From a virus: a stretch of 42,317 nucleotides of DNA. The stretch covers positions 1 to 42,317 of IMG/VR virus record IMGVR_UViG_3300045597_000107; one strand, given 5' to 3'. The number at the start of each line of letters is the position of its first letter. Position 1 is the stretch's first letter. This document shows positions 1-42,317 of the stretch, in pieces. A program made the translations under genes and the position numbers. A model generated the notes under the pieces. It did not search any database. It was not told the DNA's origin and saw only the letters and a program-made list of their open reading frames with translations.

Positions 1-127
1 AGTAGCATTCCGTATCCCAAGCGACCAGGCTCAGGGCTCTCAACGACTCGTCCTCGTCCATCGGCTTTCAATGGATAAACGAATCGGGCAAGACGATGCT
101 CTACGTCCTCGTCGGGAACGTGAGAAT
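1..127. repeat. Terminal direct repeat: 1-127 is identical to 42191-42317 (circular genome / assembly overlap)
   Basis: Read base by base: agtagcattccgtatcccaagcgacc...gggaacgtgagaat occurs at both window ends. The window ends exactly where the copy ends. Confidence 0.95.
5..18 (+). repeat. Crossover site R1 (GCATTCCGTATCCC); same copy as 42195-42208
   Basis: 14-nt sequence shared with 159-172, 285-298, 486-499, 675-688 (+) and 1199-1212 (-). It follows the tail-fibre stop codon tag (3-5 = 42193-42195) directly. Confidence 0.9.
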
Positions 128-158
128 CTGGGGTGTAGAGGGAACGTTTCCCGCGTGA
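19..158 (+). other. Silent tail-fibre C-terminal cassette C1 (46 codons, no own start)
   Basis: Read in the site phase cat-tcc-gta-tcc-Caa, it gives QATRLRALNDSSSSIGFQWINESGKTMLYVLVGNVRIWGVEGTFPA. The stop tga at 156-158 lies 0 nt before site R2. Confidence 0.8.
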
Positions 159-172
159 GCATTCCGTATCCC
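159..172 (+). repeat. Crossover site R2 (GCATTCCGTATCCC)
   Basis: Exact 14-nt copy, or 15 nt with the preceding A. Confidence 0.9.
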
Positions 173-285
173 AGGTGAGCTACAACGGCAGAATCTCGTT
201 CTCTTGGACCAGCCCCGGAAGCGACCAGACGGCGGGGCTGTGGGCGACCGTGGACGAGAGCGAGTTCCTTCTGATGGCTCTTTAG
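173..285 (+). other. Silent tail-fibre C-terminal cassette C2 (37 codons)
   Basis: In phase with the site: QVSYNGRISFSWTSPGSDQTAGLWATVDESEFLLMAL. The stop tag at 283-285 overlaps the first base of R3. Confidence 0.8.
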
Positions 286-298
286 CATTCCGTATCCC
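285..298 (+). repeat. Crossover site R3 (GCATTCCGTATCCC)
   Basis: Exact 14-nt copy. Confidence 0.9.
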
Positions 299-483
299 AA
301 AGGGTTCCGCTGTCGGGCATCGACGCGAGGGTCTACCTCCCGGGCAACACCGGCATCGAGATGGGCATAGGCTTCACGGCGCGCGACGGCTCGAAGTGCG
401 CCGTCTACTTCTGGGGAGCGGGCTCAGACAAGCACGTGAGCATCTGGGACGTCACTCATTCCAAGGACCTGTGGTCCATCTAG
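299..483 (+). other. Silent tail-fibre C-terminal cassette C3 (61 codons)
   Basis: In phase: QRVPLSGIDARVYLPGNTGIEMGIGFTARDGSKCAVYFWGAGSDKHVSIWDVTHSKDLWSI. The stop tag at 481-483 lies 2 nt before R4. Confidence 0.8.
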
Positions 484-485
484 CA

Positions 486-499
486 GCATTCCGTATCCC
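486..499 (+). repeat. Crossover site R4 (GCATTCCGTATCCC)
   Basis: Exact 14-nt copy. Confidence 0.9.
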
Positions 500-675
500 G
501 CGTCCTCCCGCCCGCGAGGCTCCCCAAGGCGTACCTCGACGCTCTGTCGGGCGACTACCTGATGGTCAGGTTCTTCGTCAGCGACACCGACGAGTACCGG
601 CTGGAGATAGAGCCAAGCGGCATCTCCTACATACACTATCTGAACAACGTGGGAGCTCTCATCTGGAAGAAGTAG
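500..675 (+). other. Silent tail-fibre C-terminal cassette C4 (58 codons), paralogous to the expressed tip
   Basis: In phase: RVLPPARLPKAYLDALSGDYLMVRFFVSDTDEYRLEIEPSGISYIHYLNNVGALIWKK, stop tag at 673-675. It has the same length as the expressed tip and aligns colinearly with it (...YQLQI...HYVNN...IWSK). Confidence 0.85.
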
Positions 676-688
676 CATTCCGTATCCC
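675..688 (+). repeat. Crossover site R5 (GCATTCCGTATCCC)
   Basis: Exact 14-nt copy. Its first base is the last base of the C4 stop codon. Confidence 0.9.
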
Positions 689-954
689 GGGACACGCTCG
701 TCGACGCCAACGGTCTCAGAGTCTGGCGCTTCGGACCCGTCGTGACCATGAGCCTGTCAGGCTATGCGGTGGCGACATCAGACAGGACGAGCATATACAC
801 CCTCCCCGCCGGATGGCGCCCGATGGCGATTGTCTCAGAGACCACCGGGGACTCCGACGGGAAGCGGCGGCTCATGGTGTCCGCGAACGGGATAATCAAC
901 GTCGAGGGCGGCACCGCCTACTACGGGGGCCTAACCTTCGTGGCGACTGGCTAG
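689..954 (+). other. Silent tail-fibre C-terminal cassette C5 (88 codons)
   Basis: In phase: RDTLVDANGLRVWRFGPVVTMSLSGYAVATSDRTSIYTLPAGWRPMAIVSETTGDSDGKRRLMVSANGIINVEGGTAYYGGLTFVATG, stop tag at 952-954. It contains track ORF 742..954. Confidence 0.8.
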
Positions 955-1198
955 GCGAGCGCGAGCGACACCCACGCGGTCCAGGAGCCGTCGTTGGATG
1001 TGAGCGACCTCACCCAGACCCTGGACCTTGCGTCGAGCGTGTAGTTCGATATGGCCAGCTGCTCGACGTAGTCGCGGCTCGCGACCACGAGGACGACGCC
1101 CCAGACAGCCGCCGGGGCGTTCGTGGTCGTGTCGTAGAAGATGTAGCACCCGAAGCCCCTCGCGTCGTTCAGGTCGTCGACGGAGCCGTTGTCGAGCT
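951..1198 (-). other. Silent tail-fibre C-terminal cassette C6 (82 codons), the only inverted one
   Basis: The minus strand read from site R6 gives QLDNGSVDDLNDARGFGCYIFYDTTTNAPAAVWGVVLVVASRDYVEQLAISNYTLDARSRVWVRSLTSNDGSWTAWVSLALA. The stop is the complement of 951-953. This is the C-terminal tail of the spurious track ORF 951..1991. Confidence 0.8.
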
Positions 1199-1212
1199 GG
1201 GATACGGAATGC
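1199..1212 (-). repeat. Crossover site R6 (GCATTCCGTATCCC on the minus strand), the only inverted copy
   Basis: Plus strand reads gggatacggaatgc. The site lies 1 nt from the recombinase stop codon (complement of 1214-1216). Confidence 0.9.
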
Positions 1213-1213
1213 C

Positions 1214-2083
1214 CTACGACGCCGTCATGGCCCCCTCGTAGGCCCTCGTGGCGCGCCTCACCACCGTGCCGAACCCCATGAGGTAGTGCCTCCTGGCGGT
1301 GTCGATGGTGGTGTGGCCCAGCGCCACGGAGATGTCCTCGATCGCGCAGCCCGCGTCCAGGGAGATGGTGGCCCACGAGTGCCTCAGCTCCGTCATGGAC
1401 ACCCACGGCAGGCCGTGGGCGCGGCAGAAGCGGCGGAACCCCGCCGCCACCCGGTGCGGGGCGAGCGCGCAGACCCTGCCCGAGCGGCGGCACCCGCGCA
1501 GCCGCCTGAGCCTCGCCAGGGCGAAGCGCGGCAGGCGCAGCGTGCGCCTCGACAGCCTCGTCTTGCACGGCAGCTCGCGCTCCTCGCCGCCGACCCAGTG
1601 CAGCCCCCGGCGCACGCGGACGTCGCCCGTGCGCCAGTCGACGTCCTCCCACCTCACGCCGCACGCCTCGCAGCGCCTGAGGCCCAGGGCCGCCCCCAGC
1701 AGGACCGTCGCCTCCCACGGCTGGCCGGCGATGCCCCTGAGCGTCTCGCGCTCCTGGGAGGCGGTGAGCGTGCGCCTCTCGGGGCTCTCGCGGCGGGGCA
1801 GCTCCACCCCCTGCGTGGGGTCCCACAGCCTCAGCTGGTGTCGGCGCAGGGTCCAGCGCACGACCTGCCGGAGCGTCTTGTACGCCTTCTCCGCCGCCCC
1901 GGGGGTGGGTATGGAGTCCACCCACGACTGGACGCCCTCGCAGGTCACCTCGGCCACGTCGACCTCCCCCCAGCGCGGCAGGACGTGGCACCTGAGGGCC
2001 GAGCGGTAGCCCTCTATCGTCTCGGGGCTGAGCCTCCTCTCCTTGTCGGCCATGTACTCTTCGGCGGCCTCATTCAGGTTCAT
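1214..2083 (-). CDS. Tyrosine site-specific recombinase, candidate shufflon (Rci-like) recombinase
   Basis: Track ORF 1214..2095. Tyrosine-recombinase boxes: GLRRCEACGVRWEDVD (Arg), ELRHSWATISL, ALGHTTIDTARRHYL (His..Tyr). I prefer the ATG at 2083 (MNLNEAAEEY) because a GGAG lies 6 nt upstream; the track start at 2095 is a TTG. Confidence 0.85.
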   Translation of the reverse strand: MNLNEAAEEYMADKERRLSPETIEGYRSALRCHVLPRWGEVDVAEVTCEGVQSWVDSIPTPGAAEKAYKTLRQVVRWTLRRHQLRLWDPTQGVELPRRESPERRTLTASQERETLRGIAGQPWEATVLLGAALGLRRCEACGVRWEDVDWRTGDVRVRRGLHWVGGEERELPCKTRLSRRTLRLPRFALARLRRLRGCRRSGRVCALAPHRVAAGFRRFCRAHGLPWVSMTELRHSWATISLDAGCAIEDISVALGHTTIDTARRHYLMGFGTVVRRATRAYEGAMTAS

Positions 2084-2987: not shown

Positions 2988-3875
2988 ATGGCGGACACCG
3001 CATCGGACGTCCTGTCCGTCGCGCGCGCTGAGATGGGCTACAGCCGCTACGCCGACCCGGAGGCCGGCACCAAGTACGGCAGGTGGTACGCCGAGGGGCA
3101 CGGAAGCTACTACGGGAGCACCGGCGTCCCCTACTGCGCCATGTTCGTGAGCTGGGTCTTCGCGCAGGCCGGGGCCACGTGCGACGGCGTCCCGGAGGCC
3201 TACTGCCCGTACATAGTCCAGAAGGCCCGCGCGGCGGGCTCGCTGCTCTCGGACAAGACGAGGGCGCAGGCGGGCGACGTCGTCCTCTTCGACTGGGGCT
3301 CGGACGGCGTCGCGGACCACGTGGGCCTCGTGGAGCTGAACCTCGGCTCCTGCGTCCAGACGGTCGAGGGAAACGTGAGCGGCACCGTGGCCCGGCGCAC
3401 CCGCGCGTGGTCCGACGTCTGCGCGGTCGTGCGACCGTCCTACGGCGGCTCCGCCGGCGCGGGCACGGCGTCGGGCGGCTCCACCTCGTCCTCGCCCACG
3501 GGGGCAAAGCTGCTCATGGACTGCGACGCGGGAGTCAGGACGTTCGCCGAGTGGGCCACGCAGCTCGGCCTGTCCGGCTCCGACGCGGACGGCTACGTCA
3601 GCTACCAGTACGCGCCCAACAAGGCGTACATGCGCAGCGTCTCGGCGGCCATCTACAACTGGGTCAAGGGGACGAGCGGGAGCCCCACGGTCAAGGCGAT
3701 ACAGACCCGCATCGGTTCGGCTAACGTGGACGGCGTCTGGGGCGCGGCGGACAGCCGCCAGCTGCACACGTACATGAACAGCACGTGGGGCTACCACATG
3801 GTCGTGGACGACGACTTCGGCCCGATAACCGCCTACAACGTCCAGGACTCGCTCAACAAGGGGCTGTGGCGCTAG
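2988..3875 (+). CDS. Endolysin: N-terminal CHAP amidase/peptidase plus C-terminal peptidoglycan-binding-like repeats
   Basis: CHAP Cys/His context: VPYCAMFVSWVF and ADHVGLVE. C-terminal repeats resemble PG_binding_1 (VKAIQTRIGSANVDGVWG; VVDDDFGPITAYNVQ). Confidence 0.85.
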   Translation: MADTASDVLSVARAEMGYSRYADPEAGTKYGRWYAEGHGSYYGSTGVPYCAMFVSWVFAQAGATCDGVPEAYCPYIVQKARAAGSLLSDKTRAQAGDVVLFDWGSDGVADHVGLVELNLGSCVQTVEGNVSGTVARRTRAWSDVCAVVRPSYGGSAGAGTASGGSTSSSPTGAKLLMDCDAGVRTFAEWATQLGLSGSDADGYVSYQYAPNKAYMRSVSAAIYNWVKGTSGSPTVKAIQTRIGSANVDGVWGAADSRQLHTYMNSTWGYHMVVDDDFGPITAYNVQDSLNKGLWR

Positions 3876-4132: not shown

Positions 4133-5290
4133 CTATCCCAGATTGTCCCAACTGTCCGCGAACGGGTGCTCCTTGTAGTGCACGCTGGCCTCCCTCACGA
4201 AGTCATCCACGATGGGCCTGTCGTAGTGCTGCCCCGTGACGCCTCCCACCGAGTGCCCCATCATCCGCTCGATCGTGGAGGGCCCTATCCTGAGCGTCCA
4301 GCGCGCTATCGTCTCCCAGGACGCGCGCAGCGTCATGGGCGGCAGGTCCTTGAGTCCCACTGACTGCGCGGCCCTTGACACGGCCCTGCGATACCTCATC
4401 TGCTCTATCTGGCTGCCCGTCTCGTCACCGGAGAGCCACGTGTAGCCGTCTCTCACCCTCGTCTCGGCAATGCCGCCGAGCCTCATGGCCATGGGTCCGC
4501 ACACGACCACGGGGCGCCTGCTGAACCTGTTCTTGAGCGTCTCAGAGTACCCGTCGCCCCGGTTGTCCACCTGCCTCTTGATGGGGGCCACGAACACGGG
4601 CACTCCGCACTCGGAGACCCCGAAGCGACACTCCTGCGCCCAGACGCCCAGGGACTCTCCCACGCGACACGACCCGAAGGCAGACAGCAGAAAGGCCGGC
4701 TCTGACGGTAGGCCTCTCATCGCCTCCCACATGCGCCTCAGCTCGTCGGGCTTGTAGCAGTCAGTCGAACGGATGGTCTTCTTGCTATCTGGCATCTCAT
4801 AGGTAGCTCTCATTGGGTTCACCCGCATCTCCACCTCGTTGAACTCGGCGATTCTGTAGATTCTCTTCATCACGGTCCTGCACTGCTTGGCAGTCGACCC
4901 AGACTTCGTGAGCAGCCAGTCCTGCACGTCAGCGGCGCGAACGTCCGTGAGCGGGACGGCTCCCCATGCGGGCTCGACGTGGTTCTTCCACGTGCTGTCG
5001 AACTGCTTGCGGGCGTTGTCGCTCATCCTGCCGCCCGCCTGGCGCCTGTCGGCCCACGGGACCCACCACAGATCGTGCGCCTGGGACACGGTGGGGGTGG
5101 GCCCGTCCCTGGAGTGCTCGATGCGCCGGAGCGTCAGGACCTCGTCCGCCTCCCTGCGGGTGCCCCTCACGGTCTCGGTGCGCCTGCGATAGCCTCTGCC
5201 GTCGTGGAGGTCCGCCCAGTACCTGATGCGCCTCTTGCCGGGACCGGCGGAATCGTTCGACCCCCACGTGGACCTCTGCCGTCGTGGCAT
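4133..5290 (-). CDS. int: Tyrosine integrase (phage integrase family)
   Basis: 385 aa. N-terminal SAM-like region, then C-terminal catalytic boxes TLRASWETIARW and MMGHSVGGVTGQHYDRP. It has the classic position next to the lysogeny module. Confidence 0.9.
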   Translation of the reverse strand: MPRRQRSTWGSNDSAGPGKRRIRYWADLHDGRGYRRRTETVRGTRREADEVLTLRRIEHSRDGPTPTVSQAHDLWWVPWADRRQAGGRMSDNARKQFDSTWKNHVEPAWGAVPLTDVRAADVQDWLLTKSGSTAKQCRTVMKRIYRIAEFNEVEMRVNPMRATYEMPDSKKTIRSTDCYKPDELRRMWEAMRGLPSEPAFLLSAFGSCRVGESLGVWAQECRFGVSECGVPVFVAPIKRQVDNRGDGYSETLKNRFSRRPVVVCGPMAMRLGGIAETRVRDGYTWLSGDETGSQIEQMRYRRAVSRAAQSVGLKDLPPMTLRASWETIARWTLRIGPSTIERMMGHSVGGVTGQHYDRPIVDDFVREASVHYKEHPFADSWDNLG

Positions 5291-5381
5291 AATGGTCTTG
5301 CCTCCAATCGTCTGGTTGCTGGCATGGCCCCGTCCCCCTCGCCGCCAAGCATGTGGGAGCGGGGCCTAACGTTGTCTAAAA

Positions 5382-6170
5382 CTAATTGATCACGACGCTA
5401 TCAGCCAGCAGAGCGGGAAGGGATATGCTCGCTCCCAATGTTGACTTGTACGTGTAGAGCCCTAGGCAGGTCCCGTAGACGGTCACGCTGTCGTCCTCGA
5501 GGACGCGGGTCCCGCCGAGAATGGACGGGTCATACCCGACATAGACGATGTCGTCATACTCCCCGTCGGTCGCAATGCGCAGGTCCGTTTCGCTTGACCC
5601 CTCGATGACCTGCAACACCCGACCCGTGAACGCCAGCTGCTGACCCTTGTAGTCATCGGGGTTGCGAGCGACGGACTCGTAGTCGACCAACTCGTATTCA
5701 TCCGGATCAAACGGTCTTTCCACCAGCGCCGACATAGTGTTGACGAGCTCGTCATGAGCTGAGTTGACCTCGTCCTGCGTTGCTTCATCGTCGCCGTCGA
5801 CGCTGCGCGCGGAGTCGAGCGCCGCCTGAAATGCCGCCCAGCTGTCATCGGTGTAATCGTCCGCGCTAAGACCTGCAGCCTTGGTGATGCTGCTGCTAAG
5901 CGCTGACTTCGTCACCGGTATCACCACCTCCTCCGTATCAGGCTTTTCTTCTGACGTGGTGCTCTTCGTCGCTGTCATGCCTGCTTCAGGAGTCTTCGTG
6001 GTGGATGATAAGTTACCGCCCCCTGCGACGCCGGCAATTACGAGCACAACGATTGCGCCGACCACCGCCCACATCGCCCAGTGACGTTTCTTCGGGGCCT
6101 CCTGCGGTTCCTGCTCCTGCGTGGGGTCCTGCGGCGTCTCGATTTCGTCAGGGCTGTCGTTGTCTGCCAT
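5382..6170 (-). CDS. Membrane-anchored extracytoplasmic protein (moron / possible superinfection-exclusion candidate)
   Basis: Acidic N-terminus, one TM segment (WAMWAVVGAIVVLVIAGVAGG), a Thr/Ser-rich linker, a FIVAR-like helix (DDSWAAFQAALDSARSV...) and a beta-rich C-terminal domain. GC is lower than its neighbours, and it sits between int and the repressor. Confidence 0.6.
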   Translation of the reverse strand: MADNDSPDEIETPQDPTQEQEPQEAPKKRHWAMWAVVGAIVVLVIAGVAGGGNLSSTTKTPEAGMTATKSTTSEEKPDTEEVVIPVTKSALSSSITKAAGLSADDYTDDSWAAFQAALDSARSVDGDDEATQDEVNSAHDELVNTMSALVERPFDPDEYELVDYESVARNPDDYKGQQLAFTGRVLQVIEGSSETDLRIATDGEYDDIVYVGYDPSILGGTRVLEDDSVTVYGTCLGLYTYKSTLGASISLPALLADSVVIN

Positions 6171-6309
6171 CTTCTCCTCCGTCTTTTTCCTTGCTTATAG
6201 GAATCTGAATCCTACTACGCATACAACTTGGCTCCATATGCCGTTTCCGTCACTGGGTGTGATAGGTTCGCGGGCGTTCCCACCAAAATCAAATTCGTAA
6301 AGTTCGAGG

Positions 6310-6954
6310 CTAGATTTCGATATCGAACGGAACCGTGTACCAGACTACGCGACCGATTATCGTAATCGTTTCCGTATCTGGGACGTTATTGTCAAATACC
6401 CTCATGTGGTAGGTAGGATCCAAAGAGTCCGGTTCCAGTCCTATCCCGTTTGCAAGCATTCTGATTCGCTTCACAGTTGCGTCGTAACCGTTTACGCATA
6501 CCGCATAGACCTGACCGCTCACGACGGGTTCCTTTAGGTCTGGGTCAACGAGCACAAGAGACTTATCCGGTATGACCCGGCTCATGCTCTCACCTTCGAT
6601 TTCAAGAAAGAATGCCTTCGGATGCCTCTTTATGAGGGTGGTAGGGCAGGGGAAGCCATAGTCCCCTTCCTCCATCTCAAGAGGAGTCCCCGCCGCTATC
6701 TTTCCATAGACCTTCGTCTCAACGCTCGAGTAGTCTTGGTCGTCCCTCATGGGGATGTACGGGAGAAAGAGCATGTGAACACTAACGTCAAGGTAGCTTG
6801 CTATCTGCTTGAGCTTTTTCCAGTCAGGAATGGTGTCCTTGGACTCCCATGCCCCGACAGTTCCCTTTGATATTCCGAGGTCTTCTGCCATGTCTCGTTG
6901 AGAAATCCCCTTCTCCGCTCGAAGTCTAGCTATGTTGTCCCCTAAGACGCTCAT
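6310..6954 (-). CDS. CI/LexA-like repressor (XRE HTH plus S24 peptidase domain)
   Basis: N-terminal HTH: NIARLRAEKGISQRDMAEDLGISKGTVGAWE. C-terminal S24 motifs: EIEGESMSRVI (Ser) and DATVKRIR (Lys). Confidence 0.9.
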   Translation of the reverse strand: MSVLGDNIARLRAEKGISQRDMAEDLGISKGTVGAWESKDTIPDWKKLKQIASYLDVSVHMLFLPYIPMRDDQDYSSVETKVYGKIAAGTPLEMEEGDYGFPCPTTLIKRHPKAFFLEIEGESMSRVIPDKSLVLVDPDLKEPVVSGQVYAVCVNGYDATVKRIRMLANGIGLEPDSLDPTYHMRVFDNNVPDTETITIIGRVVWYTVPFDIEI

Positions 6955-7104
6955 TAGACCTCCTTGGCAAATATTTCTTTATCGCTTGCTTGCATATTAT
7001 CCATTTTGCCAAATTATTTTTGGCAGATGGATTGACTGCTCAAAATAAATGACCTAGTATCCAAATCGGTCAAAATAATTGACCACCCACCTTGGAGGTG
7101 AAAA
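6955..7104. promoter_or_regulatory. Divergent repressor/cro control region with operator-like dyads and a sigma70-like promoter
   Basis: Dyads: tgccaaa-ttatt-tttggca (7007-7025) and ggtcaa-aataa-ttgacc (7068-7084), plus a ttggcaaa half-site near 6964. Promoter: ttgact (7032-7037), 17 nt spacer, tagtat (7055-7060), facing cro. Confidence 0.6.
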
Positions 7105-7308
7105 ATGAGTCCCAACATTCTAAAGGAGCTGCGGGAGAGGCGCGGGGAGACCCGTCGAGAGGTGTGCATGGACGTCGGCATCACCGAGTACACCCTCCTG
7201 AGCATCGAGACCGGCAGGACACCAAATCCCGGCGTCAAGACGATCAAGGCGCTCGCCGACCACTACGGCGTATCCATGGACGAGCTGTTCGACAGCTCAC
7301 CCAACTAA
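7105..7308 (+). CDS. Cro-like XRE-family HTH regulator
   Basis: 67 aa with HTH LRERRGETRREVCMDVGITEYTLLSIETG. It is divergent from the repressor. Confidence 0.85.
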   Translation: MSPNILKELRERRGETRREVCMDVGITEYTLLSIETGRTPNPGVKTIKALADHYGVSMDELFDSSPN

Positions 7309-7516
7309 ATCGTTAGCACCACCTCGTACCTTGACAAACGCCCGCGCCGATGGCTGACACCCACCGCCGTACGAGGCAGAAGAAATAGCACCAATCGCGT
7401 ACCTGCCACGGTGGCGGCTGAGCTGACCCTCCACCCTCTCCGGAGGAACCCAGCCCCCTCACAGCCGTCGCCATGGCGGGTACGCGAGATAGGCCGCATG
7501 CGTGCGGTATGAGAGA

Positions 7517-24999: not shown

Positions 25000-25499
25000 G
25001 GGGGAGAAAGCCCAAGGCCAATGCGATTCGGCGCATGGACGACTCCGCGCAGCCGATGGAGGTCCTCGCCGAGGTCCCCACCGACGCGCTCAGGAAGCCC
25101 GCCTCCGTGGCTGACCACGCGGGCATGAGCGCCCTGTGGGACACGGTGGTGGGCACGGGCCGCTTCTTCAAGCCCGAGGACGGCCCCTTCGTCGAGCAGC
25201 TCGTGTTCCTGCTCGAGGAGGCCCGGCAGTGCCGCATGAACTGCGTCGACGACTACGGAAACATCCAACCCATGGTGGGCAAGGGCGAGCCCCTCGAGGA
25301 CGGGTCCTACCTCGACTACAAGGAGAACCCCTGGATGCGCGCCATGCGCGACGCTAACCAGCAGGCCCTGAAGCTCGCCGAGATGCTGGGGCTCACCCCC
25401 ATGGCCAGGGCGCGCCTGGGACTGACAGCCGCCACCGGCAAGACCATGCTCTCCATCGCCGACCAGATCGACTCCGCCATGAGGCGGGCCGAGAAGTGA
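24996..25499 (+). CDS. Terminase small subunit (P27 family-like)
   Basis: Starts MRGRKPKANAIRR...SALWDTVV...LVFLLEEARQCR. The GTG start overlaps the upstream tga, and the gene is directly upstream of the large subunit. Confidence 0.75.
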   Translation: MRGRKPKANAIRRMDDSAQPMEVLAEVPTDALRKPASVADHAGMSALWDTVVGTGRFFKPEDGPFVEQLVFLLEEARQCRMNCVDDYGNIQPMVGKGEPLEDGSYLDYKENPWMRAMRDANQQALKLAEMLGLTPMARARLGLTAATGKTMLSIADQIDSAMRRAEK

Positions 25500-26965
25500 G
25501 CTATCGGACTCCAACCGGGCGCCTGTCCAAGGAGGGCCTCAGGCAGGCCGCGCGCGCGGCCGTGTTCGCCGAGACCTACCTGACGTTCGCGGGGGAGTCC
25601 GACCTGTGCGGCGAGCCCTACGAGATATCAGACTGGATGCGCAGGAACGTCTGGAACCCCCTGTTCGCGACCGGTCACGTCGACAAGAGGACAGGGCGAT
25701 GGGTGCGCCGGTTCCGCCGTGCCCTCATAGGCGTGCACAGAGGGTACGGAAAGTCTCAGGTGGCCGCTGTCATCGTCATGACGGTGGCGACCATGGAGCC
25801 GCTCCCGAACGGCATGTACGGCATCGTGGCCGACTCCCGCGAGAACACGGCCATGGTCAAGAACTACATCAAGACCATGATCCGTGCGAACCGACAGCTT
25901 GCTGCCCAGTGGCACGTCTACAAGGACGTCATCAGAAACGACCAGACCGGCCAGGAGATCCACGTCTTCCCCTACAAGGAGGCGGCGCTTCAGGGCAAGC
26001 ACTTCCACGTCCTGGTGGGCGACGAGATTCACGTATGGCGAGACGAGACGGTCTGGAACGCCGCCGTCTCCGGCCAGGCGAAGGTAAGAAACGCCCTCAC
26101 CATCGGCATCACGACGGCCGGCCGAGACCGAGACGGCTTCCTGTTCAAGCTCTACCACAGGCTCAAGCGGGACAAGCGCGCCTTCGTCAGCTGGCTGGGA
26201 ATCTCCGACTCCGATGACCCCCGCGACCGCAGGTGCTGGAAGAAGATAATCGCCGCCGGGCGCATCACCATGGAGGAGCTCGAGGAGCAGTACGAGGCCC
26301 TGCCGCTCGACGAGTTCGTGCGCTACTACCTGAACCGCACGCCCATGGACGCCGACGAGAAGCCGTTCATGCGCCGGGCGGACGTGGAGGCCTGCCAGAG
26401 GGTGGAGCGCTCGCTCGACCGCTCACAGTGGTTCTCCGTGGGCATAGACGGGGCCGTATCGGGCGACACCCTGGCCGTGGTGGCCGCGCAGAGGCAGGGC
26501 GACGGCTGGGCCCTTTCGGAGTGGTGCTGGGAGCGCCCGGGGGAGATGGGCGTCTACGACCTCACAGACGTGGCCGACGTCCTGCAGGAGCTCGCTCGCG
26601 GGGCCAACCCGCTCATGTGCTGCGACCCGGCGCGCATGCAGTTCCTCAAGAACTGGCTCCAGCGAGAGCGCGGCATGGAGCTGTTCGACGTGGCACAGAC
26701 CCCCAAGGTCATGTGCCCCGCGTCCGAGCTGCTCGCACGAGCCGTCAGGACGCACGCGGCGGCGATGTCCGGGCTCGAGGTCCTGCCGCAACACTGCGTG
26801 AACGCGCGCTCCGACGAGTCCAAGGCCTACGGCAGGCGCCTGACCTCCTACAGGCACGGGCAGGGCTCCAAGCGCATCGACGCGGCCATAGCGGCCGCCA
26901 TGGCCATGTGGGCCTACGACAACAACGAGCCCGAGACCCCGGGCGTCTGGACCGTCGAGCTGTAG
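25496..26965 (+). CDS. Terminase large subunit
   Basis: 489 aa. Walker A-like GVHRGYGKSQVAA. Walker B HVLVGDEIHVW. C-terminal nuclease-like region. Confidence 0.85.
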   Translation: MSYRTPTGRLSKEGLRQAARAAVFAETYLTFAGESDLCGEPYEISDWMRRNVWNPLFATGHVDKRTGRWVRRFRRALIGVHRGYGKSQVAAVIVMTVATMEPLPNGMYGIVADSRENTAMVKNYIKTMIRANRQLAAQWHVYKDVIRNDQTGQEIHVFPYKEAALQGKHFHVLVGDEIHVWRDETVWNAAVSGQAKVRNALTIGITTAGRDRDGFLFKLYHRLKRDKRAFVSWLGISDSDDPRDRRCWKKIIAAGRITMEELEEQYEALPLDEFVRYYLNRTPMDADEKPFMRRADVEACQRVERSLDRSQWFSVGIDGAVSGDTLAVVAAQRQGDGWALSEWCWERPGEMGVYDLTDVADVLQELARGANPLMCCDPARMQFLKNWLQRERGMELFDVAQTPKVMCPASELLARAVRTHAAAMSGLEVLPQHCVNARSDESKAYGRRLTSYRHGQGSKRIDAAIAAAMAMWAYDNNEPETPGVWTVEL

Positions 26966-28521: not shown

Positions 28522-29248
28522 CGTCTACGGATACATCGGCGACAGCTGGTTCGACGACGACTGCGTCACGGCAAAGCAATTCGTGGACCAGCTGAGAGAC
28601 GCCGGGGACGAGGACGTGACCATCCACGTCAACTCATGCGGCGGCGACGTCTTCCACGCCCAGACCATGGCCGACGCCATCCGCTCCCACAAGGGGCACG
28701 TGACGGCATCCGTCGAGGGCATCGCGGCATCCGCAGCCTCCTTCTTCTGCCTCACCGCAGACGAGGTCGTCATGAATCCCTCGGCGCTCGTCATGGTGCA
28801 CAACCCGTCCTCGTCCGTCATGGGAGACGCCTCCGACATGCGCAAGGGGGCGGACACCCTCGACAAGGTTCGCTCCACCATCGTGCGCTCCTACGTGGCC
28901 AAGACCGGCCGCTCTGACGTGGAGGTGGGGCGCTGGATGGACGAGGAGACCTGGTTCGACGCCGACGAGGCGCTCGAGAGCGGCCTGGTCGACTCGCTGA
29001 CCGACGCCATGCCGGTCGCCGCGTGCCTCTCCAGGCACGCCCTGGACTCCTTCAGAAACGCCCCCGAGACGCTCGGGGCGAGCCTCGCGCCCGACGCCCC
29101 CACCAGCGCCGAGACGGGTGCGGGGGAGCCCGAGAAGACCATCTTCCACGACGAGAACGCCAGCGTTTCCGAGCCGGGAGCCGACGAGGAAGGGACGGGA
29201 GCCGCCCCCAAGGCAGTCTGCGTCACAGGAACATTCCTCAACGCATAG
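28508..29248 (+). CDS. ClpP-like (S14) prohead maturation protease
   Basis: VTIHVNSCGGDVFHAQTMADAIRSHKG...GIAASAASFFCLTADEVVMNPSALVMVHNP. ATG at 28508. Confidence 0.85.
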   Translation: MRDIDVYGYIGDSWFDDDCVTAKQFVDQLRDAGDEDVTIHVNSCGGDVFHAQTMADAIRSHKGHVTASVEGIAASAASFFCLTADEVVMNPSALVMVHNPSSSVMGDASDMRKGADTLDKVRSTIVRSYVAKTGRSDVEVGRWMDEETWFDADEALESGLVDSLTDAMPVAACLSRHALDSFRNAPETLGASLAPDAPTSAETGAGEPEKTIFHDENASVSEPGADEEGTGAAPKAVCVTGTFLNA

Positions 29249-29258
29249 GAGGCACCAC

Positions 29259-30473
29259 GTGAAGTCGTCCATCGAGATCCACAACGAGCTCACCGCAATC
29301 GAAGAGAAGATCACCCAGGCGTCCGACTCGTTCAACGCCGCAGAGGGGGACGCCAAGGACGCCTTCCGCGACTCCATCTGCGAGCTCAAGGGCCAGAAGA
29401 AGGCCCTGAACGACCAGCTCGGCGACGCGCTGTCCGAGGAGGACTCCATCCGTCGCGGCGGTGGCGTCCCCATGGCCGTCGAGAAGCCCAAGCCCCGAAC
29501 CATGAACCCGGCAGACGCCTTCCTCGGCACCCCCGAGGAGTTCAAGAGCCGTGGCGGCTCCATCATGGACGTCTACAAAAAGACTTCCATGAAGTTCCCC
29601 ATCACCGACGCGAGCGACCCGACCCACCAGTTCTACCTTCCCACCCCGACCAAGACCAGCTACGAGCTGCCCTCCAACGTCATCGAGATGCCGATGTCGT
29701 TCATCGACACCCTCTCCAAGGGCACGACCGACTCCAACATCGAGTACAAGGTGGCGGGCGAGTTCACCAACAACGCCGCCCTGTGGAAGCCCGGCCAGGT
29801 GAAGGCCGAGTCCGACGAGAAGTGGGGAGACGACTCCGCGAACCTGTTCACGGTCGCCCACCACGTCGTCATCTCCCGGCACACGGCCTACCACTACGGA
29901 CAGCTGCGCTCCCTCATCGGCAACGACCTCATGTACGGACTCAAGGTCCGCGCCGACGAGTACGCGCTTCGGCTCGATGACGGCCCCAACAAGCAGGGCG
30001 TGCTCAAGAAGGCCGGAATCCAGACCTACGTGGCCAAGAATGGCGAGAAGTTCTACGACTCCGCCCGCCGCATGAAGACCCTCTCGTGGATGTCCTCCGG
30101 CTTCCAGCCCACCTACATCGCGGTGCACCCCTACGTCTCCGAGCAGCTCGACCTCGAGAAGAGCACGGACGGCTACTACCTGCGTCTCACCGCAGACGGC
30201 AAGGTCTGGGGCATCCCCGTCGTGGAGGACATAAACCTGTTCGAGAACGCCGGGACCGACGAGGCGCCCGTCCTCACCTACGGCGCCCTCATGTACAACC
30301 CCATGTCCGCGACCTGGTACACCTCCGAGGCCGACGCTCTGTCCCTCGGCTTCGTCGATGACCAGTTCACGCGCAACGAGTTCACGCTCCTGGCCGAGGG
30401 CGAGCACCTCATCACCGTCCAGCGCCCGAAGTCGTTCGTGTACCTGCCCGACGCGATCGCAGCGGGCAAGTAG
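29259..30473 (+). CDS. Major capsid protein (HK97 fold) with N-terminal coiled-coil delta-like region
   Basis: GTG at 29259 after aggagg; 404 aa. Position is after the protease. N-terminal helix IHNELTAIEEKITQASDSF... Confidence 0.8.
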   Translation: MKSSIEIHNELTAIEEKITQASDSFNAAEGDAKDAFRDSICELKGQKKALNDQLGDALSEEDSIRRGGGVPMAVEKPKPRTMNPADAFLGTPEEFKSRGGSIMDVYKKTSMKFPITDASDPTHQFYLPTPTKTSYELPSNVIEMPMSFIDTLSKGTTDSNIEYKVAGEFTNNAALWKPGQVKAESDEKWGDDSANLFTVAHHVVISRHTAYHYGQLRSLIGNDLMYGLKVRADEYALRLDDGPNKQGVLKKAGIQTYVAKNGEKFYDSARRMKTLSWMSSGFQPTYIAVHPYVSEQLDLEKSTDGYYLRLTADGKVWGIPVVEDINLFENAGTDEAPVLTYGALMYNPMSATWYTSEADALSLGFVDDQFTRNEFTLLAEGEHLITVQRPKSFVYLPDAIAAGK

Positions 30474-33428: not shown

Positions 33429-33860
33429 TTGTTCTCTGTCGAGGTCATAAATCTGGAGGAGACCATCGAGGTCCTGCACGACGTCGATGCGGGCATGGCC
33501 TCCATGCTCAAGTCTGAGATCAAGGAGCTTGCCAAGCCGACGCTCGCCAAGGCGAAGTCCTACGCGGGCGGTCTCGGCGCGAGCCCAACGGGCGCCTACG
33601 CGTCGTCGCTGTCCCTCTCCACCCGTGCCAACGGGGTCGTGCTCAAGTCGACCGACCCGGGCGGCGGCGTCATCGAGTTCGCGAACGTTGGCGCCACCAT
33701 CCTGACCGGTCCCCGGCGTGGGCGGCGTGCTGGGGTACCGCTCGGGTCGACACCGCCAAGGGCTCTCCTGCGGGCCGTCCTTGATGACGAGGAGACGCTC
33801 ATCGAGGATCTGAACGAGGCGGTTGGCCGCTACGTGGACGAGGTGGTCGACGTTGGGTAA
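33429..33860 (+). CDS. HK97 gp10-like tail/neck component (tentative)
   Basis: TTG at 33429 lies 7 nt after ggagg. ...AKSYAGGLGASPTGAYASSLSLSTRANGVVLKSTDPGGGVIEFAN resembles gp10-family motifs. The track ORF 33234..33860 over-extends. Confidence 0.4.
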   Translation: MFSVEVINLEETIEVLHDVDAGMASMLKSEIKELAKPTLAKAKSYAGGLGASPTGAYASSLSLSTRANGVVLKSTDPGGGVIEFANVGATILTGPRRGRRAGVPLGSTPPRALLRAVLDDEETLIEDLNEAVGRYVDEVVDVG

Positions 33861-36800
33861 GGCGTCCATCACCATCGCCATAAACGGCAAGTGGAACGGC
33901 AAAGGTGAGATAACAGCCGCCACGAGCGACCTGGGGCTGCTCAACAAGAGCGTCTCGGCCAACGCCCAGGACATGGCCAAGTACCTCACCCGCCAGGAGG
34001 ACAACGCCAAGCGCGTGAGCCGCCTGGCCGCAGCCACGTCGAAGTCCAACTCGGACTCCTTGGTCGCGTTCGGAAACAGCCTCGTTGAGCAGGGCGGCAG
34101 GATCTACCGATTCGGCGAGCAGGCGGCTGAGGTCGGGGACTCGCTCACCAAGAACGTGACCCTGCCCATGGTCGCGTTCGGCGCCCTGGCGGGCAAGTCC
34201 GCCGTTGACTACGACACCGCCATGGCAAACGTCCGAAAGACCACGGACATGACCGAGGCCGAGCTCAAGCAGCTCGGCGAGGCGGCGCTGGAGTCCTCGA
34301 AGAGCCAGCCCGTCACTGCTGAGGCCATCCTCAACGTAGAGGCCCTGGGCGCCCAGCTCGACGTGTCCGACGATAAGCTGCAGAGCTTCGCTCAGACCGT
34401 CAGCGGCCTCGACATCGCCACCAACATGGACGCCGACACCGCAGCCACCGACATGGCCCGATTCGCCAACATCGTGGGCATGAGCGAGGACGAGTACTCG
34501 AACTTCGGCTCCACCATCGTCGCCATCGGAAACAACATGGCCACCACGGAGTCTGAGGTCGCGAACATGAGCCTGCGCTTCGCCTCCGCCGGTCATCAGG
34601 CGGGGCTGTCGGAGTCTCAGATTCTCGGCATGAGCGCGGCCATGAGCTCCCTGGGCATCAAGTCGGAGATGGGCGGCTCGGCACTCTCCCAGATATTCGT
34701 CGACATCTCCAAGTCAGTGGCCCTGGGAGGTGAGTCGCTCGACGCCTACGCCAAGGCCGCCCACGTGAGCGCCGACGAGTTCGCGAGCGCGTGGAGGGAC
34801 GACGCGGCCGGGGCCTTCGTGGAGCTGCTCCAGGGCATCCAGGACTCCACCGCCGCCGGCGAGGACATGAACGTCATCCTGGGCGACCTCGGCATCACCC
34901 AGATCCGCCAGTCCGACGTCATGCGGCGCATGGCCGGCTCCGTGGGAGAGGTCACTGACGCGCTCGGGCTTTCCACCCAGGCGTGGCAGGACAACACGGC
35001 CCTCCAGGCGGAGGTGGACACCAGAAACGAGTCCATGGCCAGCCGCCTGCAGGTCCTCAAGAACCGCGCCGAGGCCCTCGGCATCCAGGTGGGCGGCCCC
35101 CTCGTCAACGCCCTCATCGACGTGCTCGACGAGTCCAACCCGCTCATCGGGACCGTCGAGACCCTCGTCCAGTCCTTCGCCGACGCCGACCAGGGCACGC
35201 AGCAGATGGTCATCGGGATGGCGGGCGTGGCCGCAGCGTCCGGCCCCGTGCTGTCCGTGGTGGGGCGGCTCACCGAGGGCATTGGCTCGCTCACCGCCTC
35301 GTTCGGCCACGCGGTGCAGGACGTGGGCGTCTACGAGGACGCCATGAGCACGGTGGACGGCTCGCAGATGCGCGTCTACGCCAGCGCCAAGACAACGGCC
35401 ACCAACATGGGCCTTCTCAAGAACAAGGTGGCTGAGGCGGCAGGAGGCGTGGACAGGTACGTCTCCACGTGGGAGGACTGGTACTCGGCGAGCGGCCAGG
35501 CCGAGAAGAAGACCGTGACGCTCAACAAGCTCGTGGAGAAGCAGACCGACCTGACGGGCAAGGCCGCGAGGAAGAACGCCGAGATGGTCGAATCCCTCAG
35601 AGGCGAGATCACGGGGCTCGAGGCCACGCGAGACGCCAACGCCGAGCTCATGGACGGCTGGAAGCAGACGGCCGGCGTCATGGACAGCGCTGGAAACAGC
35701 GTCACAACCAGCACGGGGCTTCTGACAAAGCTCAAGGACGGGGTGAAGCTGGCTGGTACCGAGGCTCTCGGCATGGTGGCCAACTTCGGGCTCATGATGG
35801 GCGTGTCGGCCGTCATAGGGCTCGTTGCCGCCGCAGTTGCGGACTACGCCGCCGAGGCCGCCGCGGCTCAGCAGCGCGCCGATGACCTCGCGAGCGCGTC
35901 GCGCGGCCTAGCCGACATAGAGGCCGACGCGGCCTCCGGTGCCACGTCCATGGCCGACGGCATCGGTGACGTCGGGGAGCGCGCCGAGAAGACCCTTCAG
36001 AACGTCATAGACCTCAACGACAAGTACGCCGAGACGTTCGGTGGCCTAGAGGTGTCGCGCGCCACGCTGTCAGACTACATCGGCACGATCGAGGAGCTTG
36101 CCGGGCAGACCGACCTCACGGCCTACCAGCAGGAGCGCCTCAAGCTCGCGGTCGAGGGCTACAACAGCATCACGGGCGACACCCTCGAAGTCACCGACGC
36201 CGTCAAGGGTGAGCTGTCCGAGTCCACCGACGAGATAAACCGCAACGCCGACGCCTGGGAGCGCAACGCTCGCTCGCAGGCCATGCAGGAGGCCGCGTCC
36301 GAGTACCTCAAGGAGGAGGCTCAGGCTCGTATCGAGCTCGAAGGGGCGACCGATGAGCTGAGCAAGCGTCAGGAACGTTACAACGAGCTGCATCAGAAGG
36401 CCATTGAAGCATCCAGCGGCGGAGCCGCTCTCACTAGGGAAGAGGCCGCAGAGCTACAGACCCTCTCGAACACCTCCAGTGACGCGGCGGGTTCGGTCGC
36501 GCAGGCGCAGGGCGCCGTGGACAGCGCAACAACGTCGCTCAACTCCGCTGCGCAGAGTTCGCAGTACGCCACCCAGGCCGCCAGCGAGCTGAATGACGCG
36601 TACGGGCAGTTCGCCTCCACCGCGAACGGCCAGACCCTCGAGAAGGCCGGGGTCAACGTCGACGACCTATCGGATCGACTGCGCGACCTAGGAGCCGACA
36701 CGGATGCTCTCAACGGTCTCACCAGCGACGATCTCAACGCAATGGTGGCAACCTACGGGACCTCGACTGACGGCATCATCAGGGGGCTCGAAGCCTACGG

Positions 36801-37563
36801 CGTGTCCATGGACCAGTCGGCCGCTCGTGCCGCCCAGATGGCGCGCTCGGTCGCATCTGACATCCAGTCGATGGACAACTCCGCTGCCACGTCCCTCAAC
36901 GGTGCCGGAATCGACGTCAACGAGTTCGCGCGCAAGATGGTCGCGGCCGGGGTCACGTCAGGGGACCTCAACAGAATCTCGACTTCGAGCTTCTCCAACA
37001 TGGCACAACGCTGCGGTGGAGACATGGATCAGCTCATCGGCATGATAAAGACCTATAACCAGCAGCCGCTGAACAACAAGTACGCCACCACCAGCGTCGA
37101 CTATTCGAGCCTGCGGGACGGCATCAACTACGCCGCGCAGTGGAACAACACCTACCTTAAGACGCTCACAGGCCGTGCGAACTACACCGCTCAGCACGTG
37201 GGCATGGCATCTGGCGGCCTGCGCTACCACGCCGACGGTGGAATCGTTGCGCGTTATCACGCGAACGGCGGCGCCATAGCGACCAGGGCAACCCCCATCG
37301 TCGACATCGTTGGCGAGGCTGGTGCCGAGGCGGTCATCCCCCTCACGAACAAGCGCTACGTGCGCCCCTTCGCCGCCACCGTGGCCGAGGAGATGGGCCG
37401 CTACAACGCGGAGGGCTCCAGGGCCCTGCCGCAGACGGTCAACTACAACTACTCTATTTCCATTGACGGGACCTCGCTTCAGGGCAACGCCCGAGCCAAC
37501 CGCGCCCTCGCGGAGCTCGTGGACGCCCTCGACACCGTGTCCCGCGCGGGGGTGAGCTACTGA
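33853..37563 (+). CDS. Tape measure protein
   Basis: About 1236 aa, Ala/Ser-rich and helical. C-terminal GGLRYHADGGIVARYHANGG...DIVGEAGAEAVIPL motif. The start is uncertain: TTG at 33853 or TTG at 33823. Confidence 0.85.
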   Translation: MGKASITIAINGKWNGKGEITAATSDLGLLNKSVSANAQDMAKYLTRQEDNAKRVSRLAAATSKSNSDSLVAFGNSLVEQGGRIYRFGEQAAEVGDSLTKNVTLPMVAFGALAGKSAVDYDTAMANVRKTTDMTEAELKQLGEAALESSKSQPVTAEAILNVEALGAQLDVSDDKLQSFAQTVSGLDIATNMDADTAATDMARFANIVGMSEDEYSNFGSTIVAIGNNMATTESEVANMSLRFASAGHQAGLSESQILGMSAAMSSLGIKSEMGGSALSQIFVDISKSVALGGESLDAYAKAAHVSADEFASAWRDDAAGAFVELLQGIQDSTAAGEDMNVILGDLGITQIRQSDVMRRMAGSVGEVTDALGLSTQAWQDNTALQAEVDTRNESMASRLQVLKNRAEALGIQVGGPLVNALIDVLDESNPLIGTVETLVQSFADADQGTQQMVIGMAGVAAASGPVLSVVGRLTEGIGSLTASFGHAVQDVGVYEDAMSTVDGSQMRVYASAKTTATNMGLLKNKVAEAAGGVDRYVSTWEDWYSASGQAEKKTVTLNKLVEKQTDLTGKAARKNAEMVESLRGEITGLEATRDANAELMDGWKQTAGVMDSAGNSVTTSTGLLTKLKDGVKLAGTEALGMVANFGLMMGVSAVIGLVAAAVADYAAEAAAAQQRADDLASASRGLADIEADAASGATSMADGIGDVGERAEKTLQNVIDLNDKYAETFGGLEVSRATLSDYIGTIEELAGQTDLTAYQQERLKLAVEGYNSITGDTLEVTDAVKGELSESTDEINRNADAWERNARSQAMQEAASEYLKEEAQARIELEGATDELSKRQERYNELHQKAIEASSGGAALTREEAAELQTLSNTSSDAAGSVAQAQGAVDSATTSLNSAAQSSQYATQAASELNDAYGQFASTANGQTLEKAGVNVDDLSDRLRDLGADTDALNGLTSDDLNAMVATYGTSTDGIIRGLEAYGVSMDQSAARAAQMARSVASDIQSMDNSAATSLNGAGIDVNEFARKMVAAGVTSGDLNRISTSSFSNMAQRCGGDMDQLIGMIKTYNQQPLNNKYATTSVDYSSLRDGINYAAQWNNTYLKTLTGRANYTAQHVGMASGGLRYHADGGIVARYHANGGAIATRATPIVDIVGEAGAEAVIPLTNKRYVRPFAATVAEEMGRYNAEGSRALPQTVNYNYSISIDGTSLQGNARANRALAELVDALDTVSRAGVSY

Positions 37564-42195: not shown

Positions 42196-42317
42196 CATTC
42201 CGTATCCCAAGCGACCAGGCTCAGGGCTCTCAACGACTCGTCCTCGTCCATCGGCTTTCAATGGATAAACGAATCGGGCAAGACGATGCTCTACGTCCTC
42301 GTCGGGAACGTGAGAAT
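42191..42317. repeat. Second copy of the terminal overlap (= 1-127), containing site R1 at 42195-42208 and the first 109 nt of cassette C1
   Basis: Exact identity to 1-127. Confidence 0.95.

Follow-up and report, generated by a model that had tools for sequence, protein, structure and literature searches.

A phage tail-fibre locus with seven alternative tips, very probably a Rin shufflon

What is the use of a row of gene ends that have no gene beginnings? The phage genome IMGVR_UViG_3300045597_000107 of the IMG/VR collection (42,317 nucleotides, analyzed at full length and referred to here as the window) carries next to its tail-fibre gene a series of short open segments, or cassettes, each headed by a copy of one short asymmetric site, and at the far end of the series the gene for a tyrosine recombinase. 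We conclude that the locus is very probably a Rin-type shufflon, that is, a multiple-inversion switch of the receptor-binding tip of the phage fibre. As such, it is a seven-tip member of a family that has already been described, and it is neither a new category nor a relative of the R64/Rci system. What it adds to the literature are natural isomers of one and the same phage, the breadth of the family, the grammar of its arrays, and hints of cassette gain and loss.

How many sites are there, and how unexpected are they? The 12-mer ATTCCGTATCCC is common to all seven sites, and these seven distinct places compare with about 0.35 expected by chance. A search for the 14-mer GCATTCCGTATCCC with up to two mismatches finds 8 matches in the window where 0.35 would be expected; in 100 shuffles the count never came to 8. 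The 14-mer itself occurs on the plus strand at 5, 159, 285, 486 and 675, where all five copies extend to AGCATTCCGTATCCC, and on the minus strand at 1199-1212. Because one and the same 127-bp sequence opens and closes the window, the latter is a circular assembly; the site at 5-18 is then the same site as that at 42195-42208, directly 3′ of the fibre stop codon, and the array of cassettes follows immediately downstream of the fibre gene. The repeat (exact identity, circular closure) and the sites (from the site search, and for S1 also from the terminal repeat) are the following.

1-127 (= 42191-42317): terminal direct repeat
42006-42019, plus strand: S0, within the fibre gene; sequence GGATTCCGTATCCC, phase gat-tcc-gta-tcc (D-S-V-S)
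5-18 (= 42195-42208), plus strand: S1, directly after the fibre stop
159-172, plus strand: S2
285-298, plus strand: S3, overlapping the TAG stop of C2 by 1 nt
486-499, plus strand: S4
675-688, plus strand: S5
1199-1212, minus strand: S6, the sole inverted site, one base from the stop codon of the recombinase gene

S0 matches the 14-mer at 13 of 14 nt and is identical to the others within the 12-mer only, and it is read in the same phase as the sites of the cassettes. A copy of the asymmetric site (T-A-G-C-A)TTCCGTATCCC stands immediately before every tip, and the phase of reading is (H/D)-S-V-S. In the state captured by the window six of the seven sites are direct repeats of each other and S6 alone is opposite. 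Writing Rc for the constant shaft of the fibre and rin for the recombinase gene, the order of the locus is Rc-S0-C0-S1-C1-S2-C2-S3-C3-S4-C4-S5-C5><C6-S6-rin, with seven tips in total: C0 expressed, C1 to C5 silent and direct, C6 silent and inverted. All seven have an open phase.

42020-42195, plus strand: C0, the expressed tip; 58 codons follow DSVS, and the TAG stop is 42193-42195; shaft plus C0 is the called protein P0241 on two Joint Genome Institute (JGI) contigs
19-158, plus strand: C1, silent, 46 codons after HSVS, stop TGA at 156-158; inverted in a rearranged contig of the same phage (the isomer, L005, see below)
173-285, plus strand: C2, silent in the window, 37 codons; the expressed fibre C-terminus in the isomer (P0001)
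299-483, plus strand: C3, silent, 61 codons; 43% identity over 56 aa to the extreme C-terminus of the fibre homologue P0115
500-675, plus strand: C4, silent, 58 codons, paralogous to C0; the related phage L003 expresses its orthologue (82% aa identity)
689-954, plus strand: C5, silent, 88 codons, stop TAG at 952-954, tail-to-tail with C6; its orthologue (64% aa) is inverted and adjoins the recombinase in L003; resembles the C-terminus of P0060
951-1198, minus strand: C6, silent, 82 codons, stop the complement of 951-953; its orthologue (51% aa) is direct in L003, and the domain recurs in fibre-like proteins

C5 and C6 share the palindrome CTAG (951-954), in which their stop codons overlap; there is no site between the two cassettes, and this tail-to-tail pair is the single point at which the array switches orientation. 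Pairwise identity between tips is 15-41%, which we count as mutually dissimilar in the manner of Rin shufflon cassettes (about 6-30%). Could the cassettes be independent small genes? We rejected this, given the missing start codons at their heads (no in-frame start within the first five codons of any cassette, the earliest being a GTG as the sixth codon of C2) and a coding phase locked to the site. In that phase, the cassettes have a guanine-plus-cytosine (GC) content of 0.72-0.92 at third codon positions (GC3) versus 0.37-0.54 at second positions, the fibre gene itself having 0.89 and 0.50; such a GC3 excess is typical of the genes of this genome, whose overall GC content is 65%.

Much of this layout had been described in a first-pass annotation made from the letters alone. 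The copies of the 14-mer on both strands and the 15-nt extension are present as it had them, its open lengths (46, 37, 61, 58, 88 and 82 codons after HSVS) and stops are exact, and the cassette heads do lack start codons of their own. It had also placed an identical core in an identical phase inside the fibre gene; the phase is right, and the identity shrinks to the 12-mer. Its count of six cassettes is right for the silent ones and overlooks the expressed C0, as well as the fact that 5-18 and 42195-42208 are one site.

The two genes that bracket the array are these.

41050-42005, plus strand: Rc, constant N-terminal shaft encoded by the tail-fibre gene, reaching S0 after 319 codons; last gene of the tail module, with a PHROG tail fibre family among its matches and an R2-pyocin match
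1214-2083, minus strand: rin, tyrosine invertase, 289 aa (293 aa from a TTG at 2095), by Pfam and family alignment

Directly upstream of S0, the shaft (…HTHPASDVTSGTLPLARGGTGSGDATAARAALGA…) has a match to the tail fibre of R2-pyocin (structures 6CT8/6CL6) with an E-value of about 1e-6, which confirms Rc as a fibre. The recombinase gene begins one base past S6 and is convergent with the fibre gene. Its product matches PF00589 (Phage_integrase, 6.5e-10) and PF14659 (SAM-like core-binding, 1.7e-07) and nothing else in Pfam; it has no arm-binding domain and is shorter than the phage's own 385-aa integrase. Residues R136/R137, K174, R234, H235, H257 and Y267, among them the catalytic Arg, Lys, His and Tyr, do not vary across the family alignment. 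We rejected the possibility that rin is the lysogeny integrase, because a separate module of integrase and repressor is present, and also that it belongs to an integron: the integron-integrase model scores 27.7 bits for a cut-off of 265, and the sites are 12-16 bp, not attC hairpins.

How would such a locus work? We infer that Rin is the enzyme acting on these sites. This armless enzyme would recombine two sites of opposite orientation and invert everything between them, and only the tip joined to Rc at S0 would be translated. Strand exchange would occur inside the 12 bp common to all sites, leaving each product in frame as …ALR-DSVS-tip. From the window state, S6 alone could pair with the six plus-strand sites, and the first event would have to involve it; inversion between S0 and S6 would bring C6 to expression in one event, and any other silent tip would need two inversions. 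By inversion alone, 1440 arrangements can be reached in simulation, and each of the seven tips is expressible. That recombination at the core could give any cassette, as the first-pass annotation had it, is sound with respect to frame and passes over orientation: five of the six silent cassettes are direct relative to the fibre site, for which reason one crossover with a direct cassette would delete, not invert, DNA, and C1 to C5 would each take two inversions.

Is there evidence that the locus has rearranged? The contig Ga0455833_0378 from JGI sample 3300044212 (L005/L016), which we reached through an endolysin look-up, is 100% identical to the window in every segment over 15.6 kb, barring two 1-nt insertions in rin, and has the order Rc-S-C2-S3-C3-S4-C4-S5-C5-C6'-S'-C1'-S'-[C4'-S'-C3'-S']-C0'-S'. 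Its fibre open reading frame, P0001, which is the best fibre homologue, follows the window shaft residue for residue and then continues with DSVS and C2 (DSVSQVSYNGRISF...LLMAL). The bracketed extra copy aside, two successive inversions, first S2 x S6 and next S0 x S6, turn the window state into exactly this isomer, as reproduced by simulation. The other end of the contig starts at a site followed by rin, and both ends terminate in a site. The G of S0 (GGATTCC) stays with the Rc flank in the isomer and C0 gains GCATTCC; since this G/C polymorphism 5′ of ATTCC stays with the left flank, the crossover must fall within the 12-mer.

Other phages tell a similar story. In L003 (IMG/VR UViG 3300044569_000072), whose rin is 96% identical to that of the window, the expressed tip is the C4 orthologue, that of C6 lies in direct orientation and that of C5 adjoins rin in inverted orientation, from which it follows that the S5-S6 segment is flipped relative to the window with its breakpoints at sites. 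L003 has four tips only, one of them without counterpart in the window. As a separate observation, an IS256/Mutator-family transposase (PF00872, E 1.3e-95; L003 6271-7587, plus strand) sits exactly between the C6 and C5 orthologues, the tail-to-tail pair. A second case is P0170, of a recombinase cluster 65% identical to the window rin, which occurs as an identical protein on ten contigs with the same core. Two of its loci, L008 and L011 (96.6% identity), differ by a 436-bp inversion bounded by sites. Site-breakpoint inversions that give alternative full-length fibre genes, as in a Rin shufflon, are thus found in Rc-C2 of the isomer, in L003, and in L008 versus L011. The in-frame fusion of the shaft to alternative tips by site-specific recombination, proposed in the first-pass annotation, is borne out by the shaft-C2 isomer, by the C5/C6 flip in L003 and by the adjacent tyrosine recombinase.

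Two further P0170 loci, L007 (4934-5213) and L006 (6470-6486), differ by a precise site-to-site indel of one cassette, 279 bp, which suggests occasional recombination between direct sites, either deletion or cassette capture. Might deletion then be the main mode of switching, in which S0 recombines with a direct downstream site and excises the tips in between, an irreversible choice? Six direct repeats among seven sites would suit it, as would this indel between relatives with an identical recombinase and the mere four tips of L003. But the isomer that expresses C2 keeps C0 and C1, inverted between C6 and rin, which is what inversion predicts and deletion does not; family arrays retain up to 11 sites; and the precedents, Rin in Bifidobacterium prophages (PMC6109161) and R64, are inversion systems. 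We give deletion as the main mode little credence, and hold to inversion.

How general is the arrangement? In the protein collection the rin family has 392 clusters (E<=1e-10), mostly of about 288 aa and 60-70% identical; hundreds of gut-metagenome clusters are related to the window rin at that identity, and 383 relatives are in IMG/VR. From the latter we fetched 80 loci and scored 51 arrays. The number of sites per array is 2-11, with a median of 5, and 9 of the 51 have at least seven. The first site shares the orientation of the recombinase in 49 of the 51; its median distance past the rin stop is then 17 nt, and in 44 of these 49 the distance is 3-68 nt. In 45 of the 51 arrays there is a single orientation switch, with one block in rin orientation and then one block in fibre orientation, which matches the grammar of the window, two chains around one tail-to-tail pair. 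More than one switch is seen in four loci (L041, L069, L070, L096), which may have two tail-to-tail pairs. The largest arrays, in L018 and L065, have 11 sites each, 10 in recombinase orientation and one in fibre orientation, the mirror image of the window. In six loci (L020, L037, L052, L055, L059, L082) there is no TTCCNTANCC array within 4.5 kb of the rin homologue; these may use another core or have lost the array.

The core sequence varies along with the divergence of the recombinase.

TTCCGTATCC: core at 46-96% identity to the window rin
TTCCGTAACC: core at 40-44% identity; also in Bifidobacterium phage PMBT6 and Siphoviridae sp. ctl617
TTCCCTAACC, the published Bifidobacterium rix: core at 42% identity

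The recombinases that flank the TTCCCTAACC arrays (L083, L085, L086, L090, L094) are 42% identical to rin over about 273 aa, and the equivalent gene of PMBT6, whose array uses TTCCGTAACC, is 33% identical; the homology of rin to rix-associated recombinases is judged via these IMG/VR enzymes and PMBT6. Across 234 unique family sites the consensus of the silent sites is T-A-G-C-A + TTCCGTATCC + C. Sites inside the fibre gene have, in 40 related loci, the sequence GGGA + TTCCGTATCCC, the same form as S0, and their dyad GGGA/TCCC flanks the asymmetric 7-mer TTCCGTA, which is likely to be a 7-bp overlap region.

With the family at hand, one can ask whether the isomers are artefacts of assembly, mis-joins at repeated sites of a single real arrangement. 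Ga0455833_0378 does have C3-C4 twice in opposite orientations, and both of its ends at a site, the pattern of a tangled graph. Yet the repeats are 14-16 bp, below the usual assembler k-mers, such that each hybrid junction needs spanning reads; the frame is kept across the Rc-C2 junction, and gene calling reported a gene there; site-bounded inversions are also found in independent relatives from other samples (L003, and L008 versus L011); and 45 of 51 family loci keep the single-switch grammar despite varying numbers of sites on each side. An artefact is to our mind extremely improbable as an explanation for all of this, and we take the isomers to be real arrangements.

What would the tips do? 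They form the extreme C-terminus of the fibre, C3, C5 and C6 resemble by sequence comparison the C-termini of other fibre proteins, and the C6-type domain occurs in collagen-containing fibre-like proteins; for these reasons, the tips probably determine the receptor specificity toward the host. The C6-type domain (about 75 aa; tip C6 spans window 954-1211 on the minus strand) is found in 4-7 tandem copies in metagenome proteins of 600-1050 aa (P0247-P0250, P0257), one of which has collagen repeats, and two shorter matches carry DUF5648 beside it. A word-based homologue search with C6 alone as the query found nothing.

A number of observations weigh against a switch of receptor-binding tips. A Pfam search with the shaft end plus each tip gave nothing at E<=1, no H-type lectin and no recognised receptor-binding domain; the homology search of the cassettes that the first-pass annotation had called for turned up the fibre C-termini just described and no such domain. 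An AlphaFold2 (AF2) single-sequence model of C6 has a predicted local distance difference test (pLDDT) score of 54.7, unusable for a fold search. The evidence for rearrangement consists of comparisons of assembled contigs. The isomer contains an extra inverted S-C4-S-C3 copy of 390 bp (L005 8151-8556, between C1' and C0'; the direct copy is at 7085-7486) that inversions alone cannot produce, and two single-C insertions frameshift its rin (L016 442 and 701, window 1639 and 1897), with a chance of about 0.003 that both would fall in rin. Either the isomer stems from a lineage whose invertase is dead and whose array is fixed and in part duplicated, or the contig, or part of it, is the way an assembler took through a mixed population. 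The window arrangement recurs in a second independent assembly, L097; because the two share it, any switching would be rare or one state selected. Among called proteins, an exact-fusion look-up found shaft plus C0 and shaft plus C2, and no fusions to C1, C3, C4, C5 or C6.

A single arrangement dominating two of three assemblies suggests that switching is infrequent. Further searches gave little: an exact look-up of the window recombinase protein (both starts) found no further contigs of exactly this phage, and neither the Rc-S0 junction (25/26-mer, viral and metagenome contig collections) nor the fibre protein (scan of metagenome contigs) had matches in collections that evidently lack the relevant JGI samples.

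Could the cassettes then be a static library, relics of past duplication or of horizontal exchange between phages, whose order changes over evolutionary time only and by other routes of recombination, next to a recombinase whose role lies elsewhere, in dimer resolution, for example, or in a second integration function? The repeated arrangement in two assemblies and the frameshifted rin in the one rearranged contig speak for it, and so does the fact that the best NCBIfam similarities of rin, far below the cut-offs, are to Xer-type recombinases. However, a static library does not account for a rearranged contig that is 100% nucleotide-identical segment by segment with its breakpoints exactly in the 12-bp core, given that 12-16 bp of identity is too short for RecA-type exchange. 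Nor does it account for the linkage of recombinase and array in hundreds of loci, with a core that changes as the recombinase diverges, or for the rix inversions within the read sets of Bifidobacterium prophages (PMC6109161). We find it very improbable, and return to a multiple-inversion switch as the reading that fits these observations.

Within that switch there may be room for more than inversion. It is possible, if doubtful, that Rin-type enzymes at times recombine direct sites or two genome copies, giving integron-like deletion, duplication and capture. If true, recombination between direct sites or genomes would explain both the growth of arrays to 11 sites and their shrinkage to 2; the extra inverted C3-C4 copy in Ga0455833_0378 would be a real product, and the rin frameshifts would then have locked that lineage on C2.

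Taken as a whole, the window is a complete temperate genome of the siphovirus type. The features on which this is based are as follows.

25496-26965: terminase
29118-30473: major head protein
33823-37563: tape measure, after which tail proteins run to 40746, followed by the fibre gene
2131-2595: hemolysin/holin-like lysis gene, past the recombinase
2988-3875: endolysin, past the recombinase
4133-5290, minus strand: lysogeny integrase, 385 aa, PHROG match phrog_1
6310-6954, minus strand: CI/LexA-type repressor, adjoining the lysogeny integrase

Lysogeny has its own enzyme, since this separate 385-aa integrase stands beside the CI/LexA-type repressor; the lysogeny module (4133-6954, minus strand) also holds a 262-aa protein with Sie-like/FIVAR matches. 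The closest named fibre homologues are from Collinsella intestinalis and Eggerthellaceae, and because of these and of the 65% GC the host is probably a gut member of the Coriobacteriia. A recombinase scan of genome contigs gave only a 19%-identical Clostridiales match, and thus no direct host assignment. A promoter and terminator scan of 1-2400 gave no matches, and is uninformative for a high-GC actinobacterial phage.

Why does it matter? The Rin system, of which only a few prophages of Bifidobacterium and Eggerthella had been described as carriers, turns out to be widespread among high-GC gut Actinomycetota phages. This bears on the prediction of the host range of gut phages, and on how assembly breaks and strain variation at fibre loci are to be read. 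For engineering, a 12-16-bp site and a 289-aa recombinase make a compact tool for swapping tips.

How does the locus compare with known systems? Mu Gin, P1 Cin and p15B Min also exchange tail-fibre C-termini by inversion, and Min is also a multi-segment shufflon. They differ in using a serine recombinase with a Fis-dependent enhancer and crossover sites (gix/cix) of about 26 bp, and in Mu and P1 a chaperone gene is co-inverted with the fibre segment. We rejected a serine-invertase switch for the window, as the Pfam matches of rin are to tyrosine recombinase domains only.

The pilV shufflon of R64/IncI1 is an inversion system of the recombinase Rci, whose sfx sites have a 7-bp spacer and a conserved 12-bp right arm. 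Like the window, it relies on multiple inversions by a tyrosine recombinase, on asymmetric sites and on a recombinase gene that adjoins the array, and it swaps seven PilV C-termini, alternative ends of one adhesin-like protein, as the window swaps seven tips. In contrast, the target of R64 is a conjugative pilus adhesin rather than a phage tail fibre, the cassettes of the window form two chains around one tail-to-tail pair, unlike those of R64, and the recombinase of the window is not Rci-like. Membership in the R64/Rci family was rejected: a tblastn search of 72,556 plasmids (E<=1e-3) gave no IncI/Rci match, and NCBIfam gave only the sub-threshold Xer-like similarities. The sequence of the window site, TAGCATTCCGTATCCC, has no relation to that of sfx, and asymmetry and a possible 7-bp overlap TTCCGTA alone would be analogous. 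The parallel drawn by the first-pass annotation is one of mechanism, not of family; the shufflon logic carries over, and kinship with Rci beyond the superfamily does not.

BV01-like phages of Phocaeicola (PMC13596623, a 2026 preprint) have, according to that preprint, a recombinase-flanked inversion locus where the tail-fibre gene has its distal end, with all configurations seen in reads. As described there, it is like the window a phage-encoded multi-cassette locus that overlaps the distal fibre gene; it differs in its motif, TGGGAGAACT, in having three cassettes that give six variants, and in its Bacteroidota host.

The closest relatives are the Rin shufflons proper, so that the application of shufflon logic to phage tips, presented as new in the first-pass annotation, had already been reported twice (PMC6109161, PMC8778435). 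Mavrich et al. 2018 (PMC6109161) described the system in the Bifidobacterium prophages Bb423phi1, Bl30698phi1 and Bl157phi1, with Rc, Rv cassettes, the rix site of 11 bp, TTCCCTAACCC, and, besides the integrase, a tyrosine invertase of its own that lacks arms; rix inversions were seen in prophage and virion reads, and the enzyme was presented as the first phage-encoded tyrosine invertase. The window shares with it a constant Rc that has one site inside and another right behind its stop, promoterless cassettes of low pairwise identity, each with a short asymmetric site before it, and, at the far end, a convergent armless XerD-like tyrosine invertase together with a separate lysogeny integrase. 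The window site TTCCGTATCCC equals the published rix TTCCCTAACCC at 9 of 11 positions, two being different. The window has seven tips versus five in the Bifidobacterium shufflon, a shaft with a pyocin-type fibre motif and coiled-coil versus a receptor-binding protein like those of lactococcal 1358/TP901-1, and a host that is probably a member of the Coriobacteriia versus Bifidobacterium. In Eggerthella lenta clade 1 prophages, the Rin shufflon has the repeat ttccgtat, and many of its Rv cassettes have H-type lectin domains (PMC8778435, 2022), which Pfam does not detect in the window tips. Compared by description, this system has the same Rc/Rv/Rin layout as the window and a separate integrase; its 8-bp repeat lies inside the window core, and its host is a high-GC member of the Coriobacteriia, as we think the host of the window phage to be.

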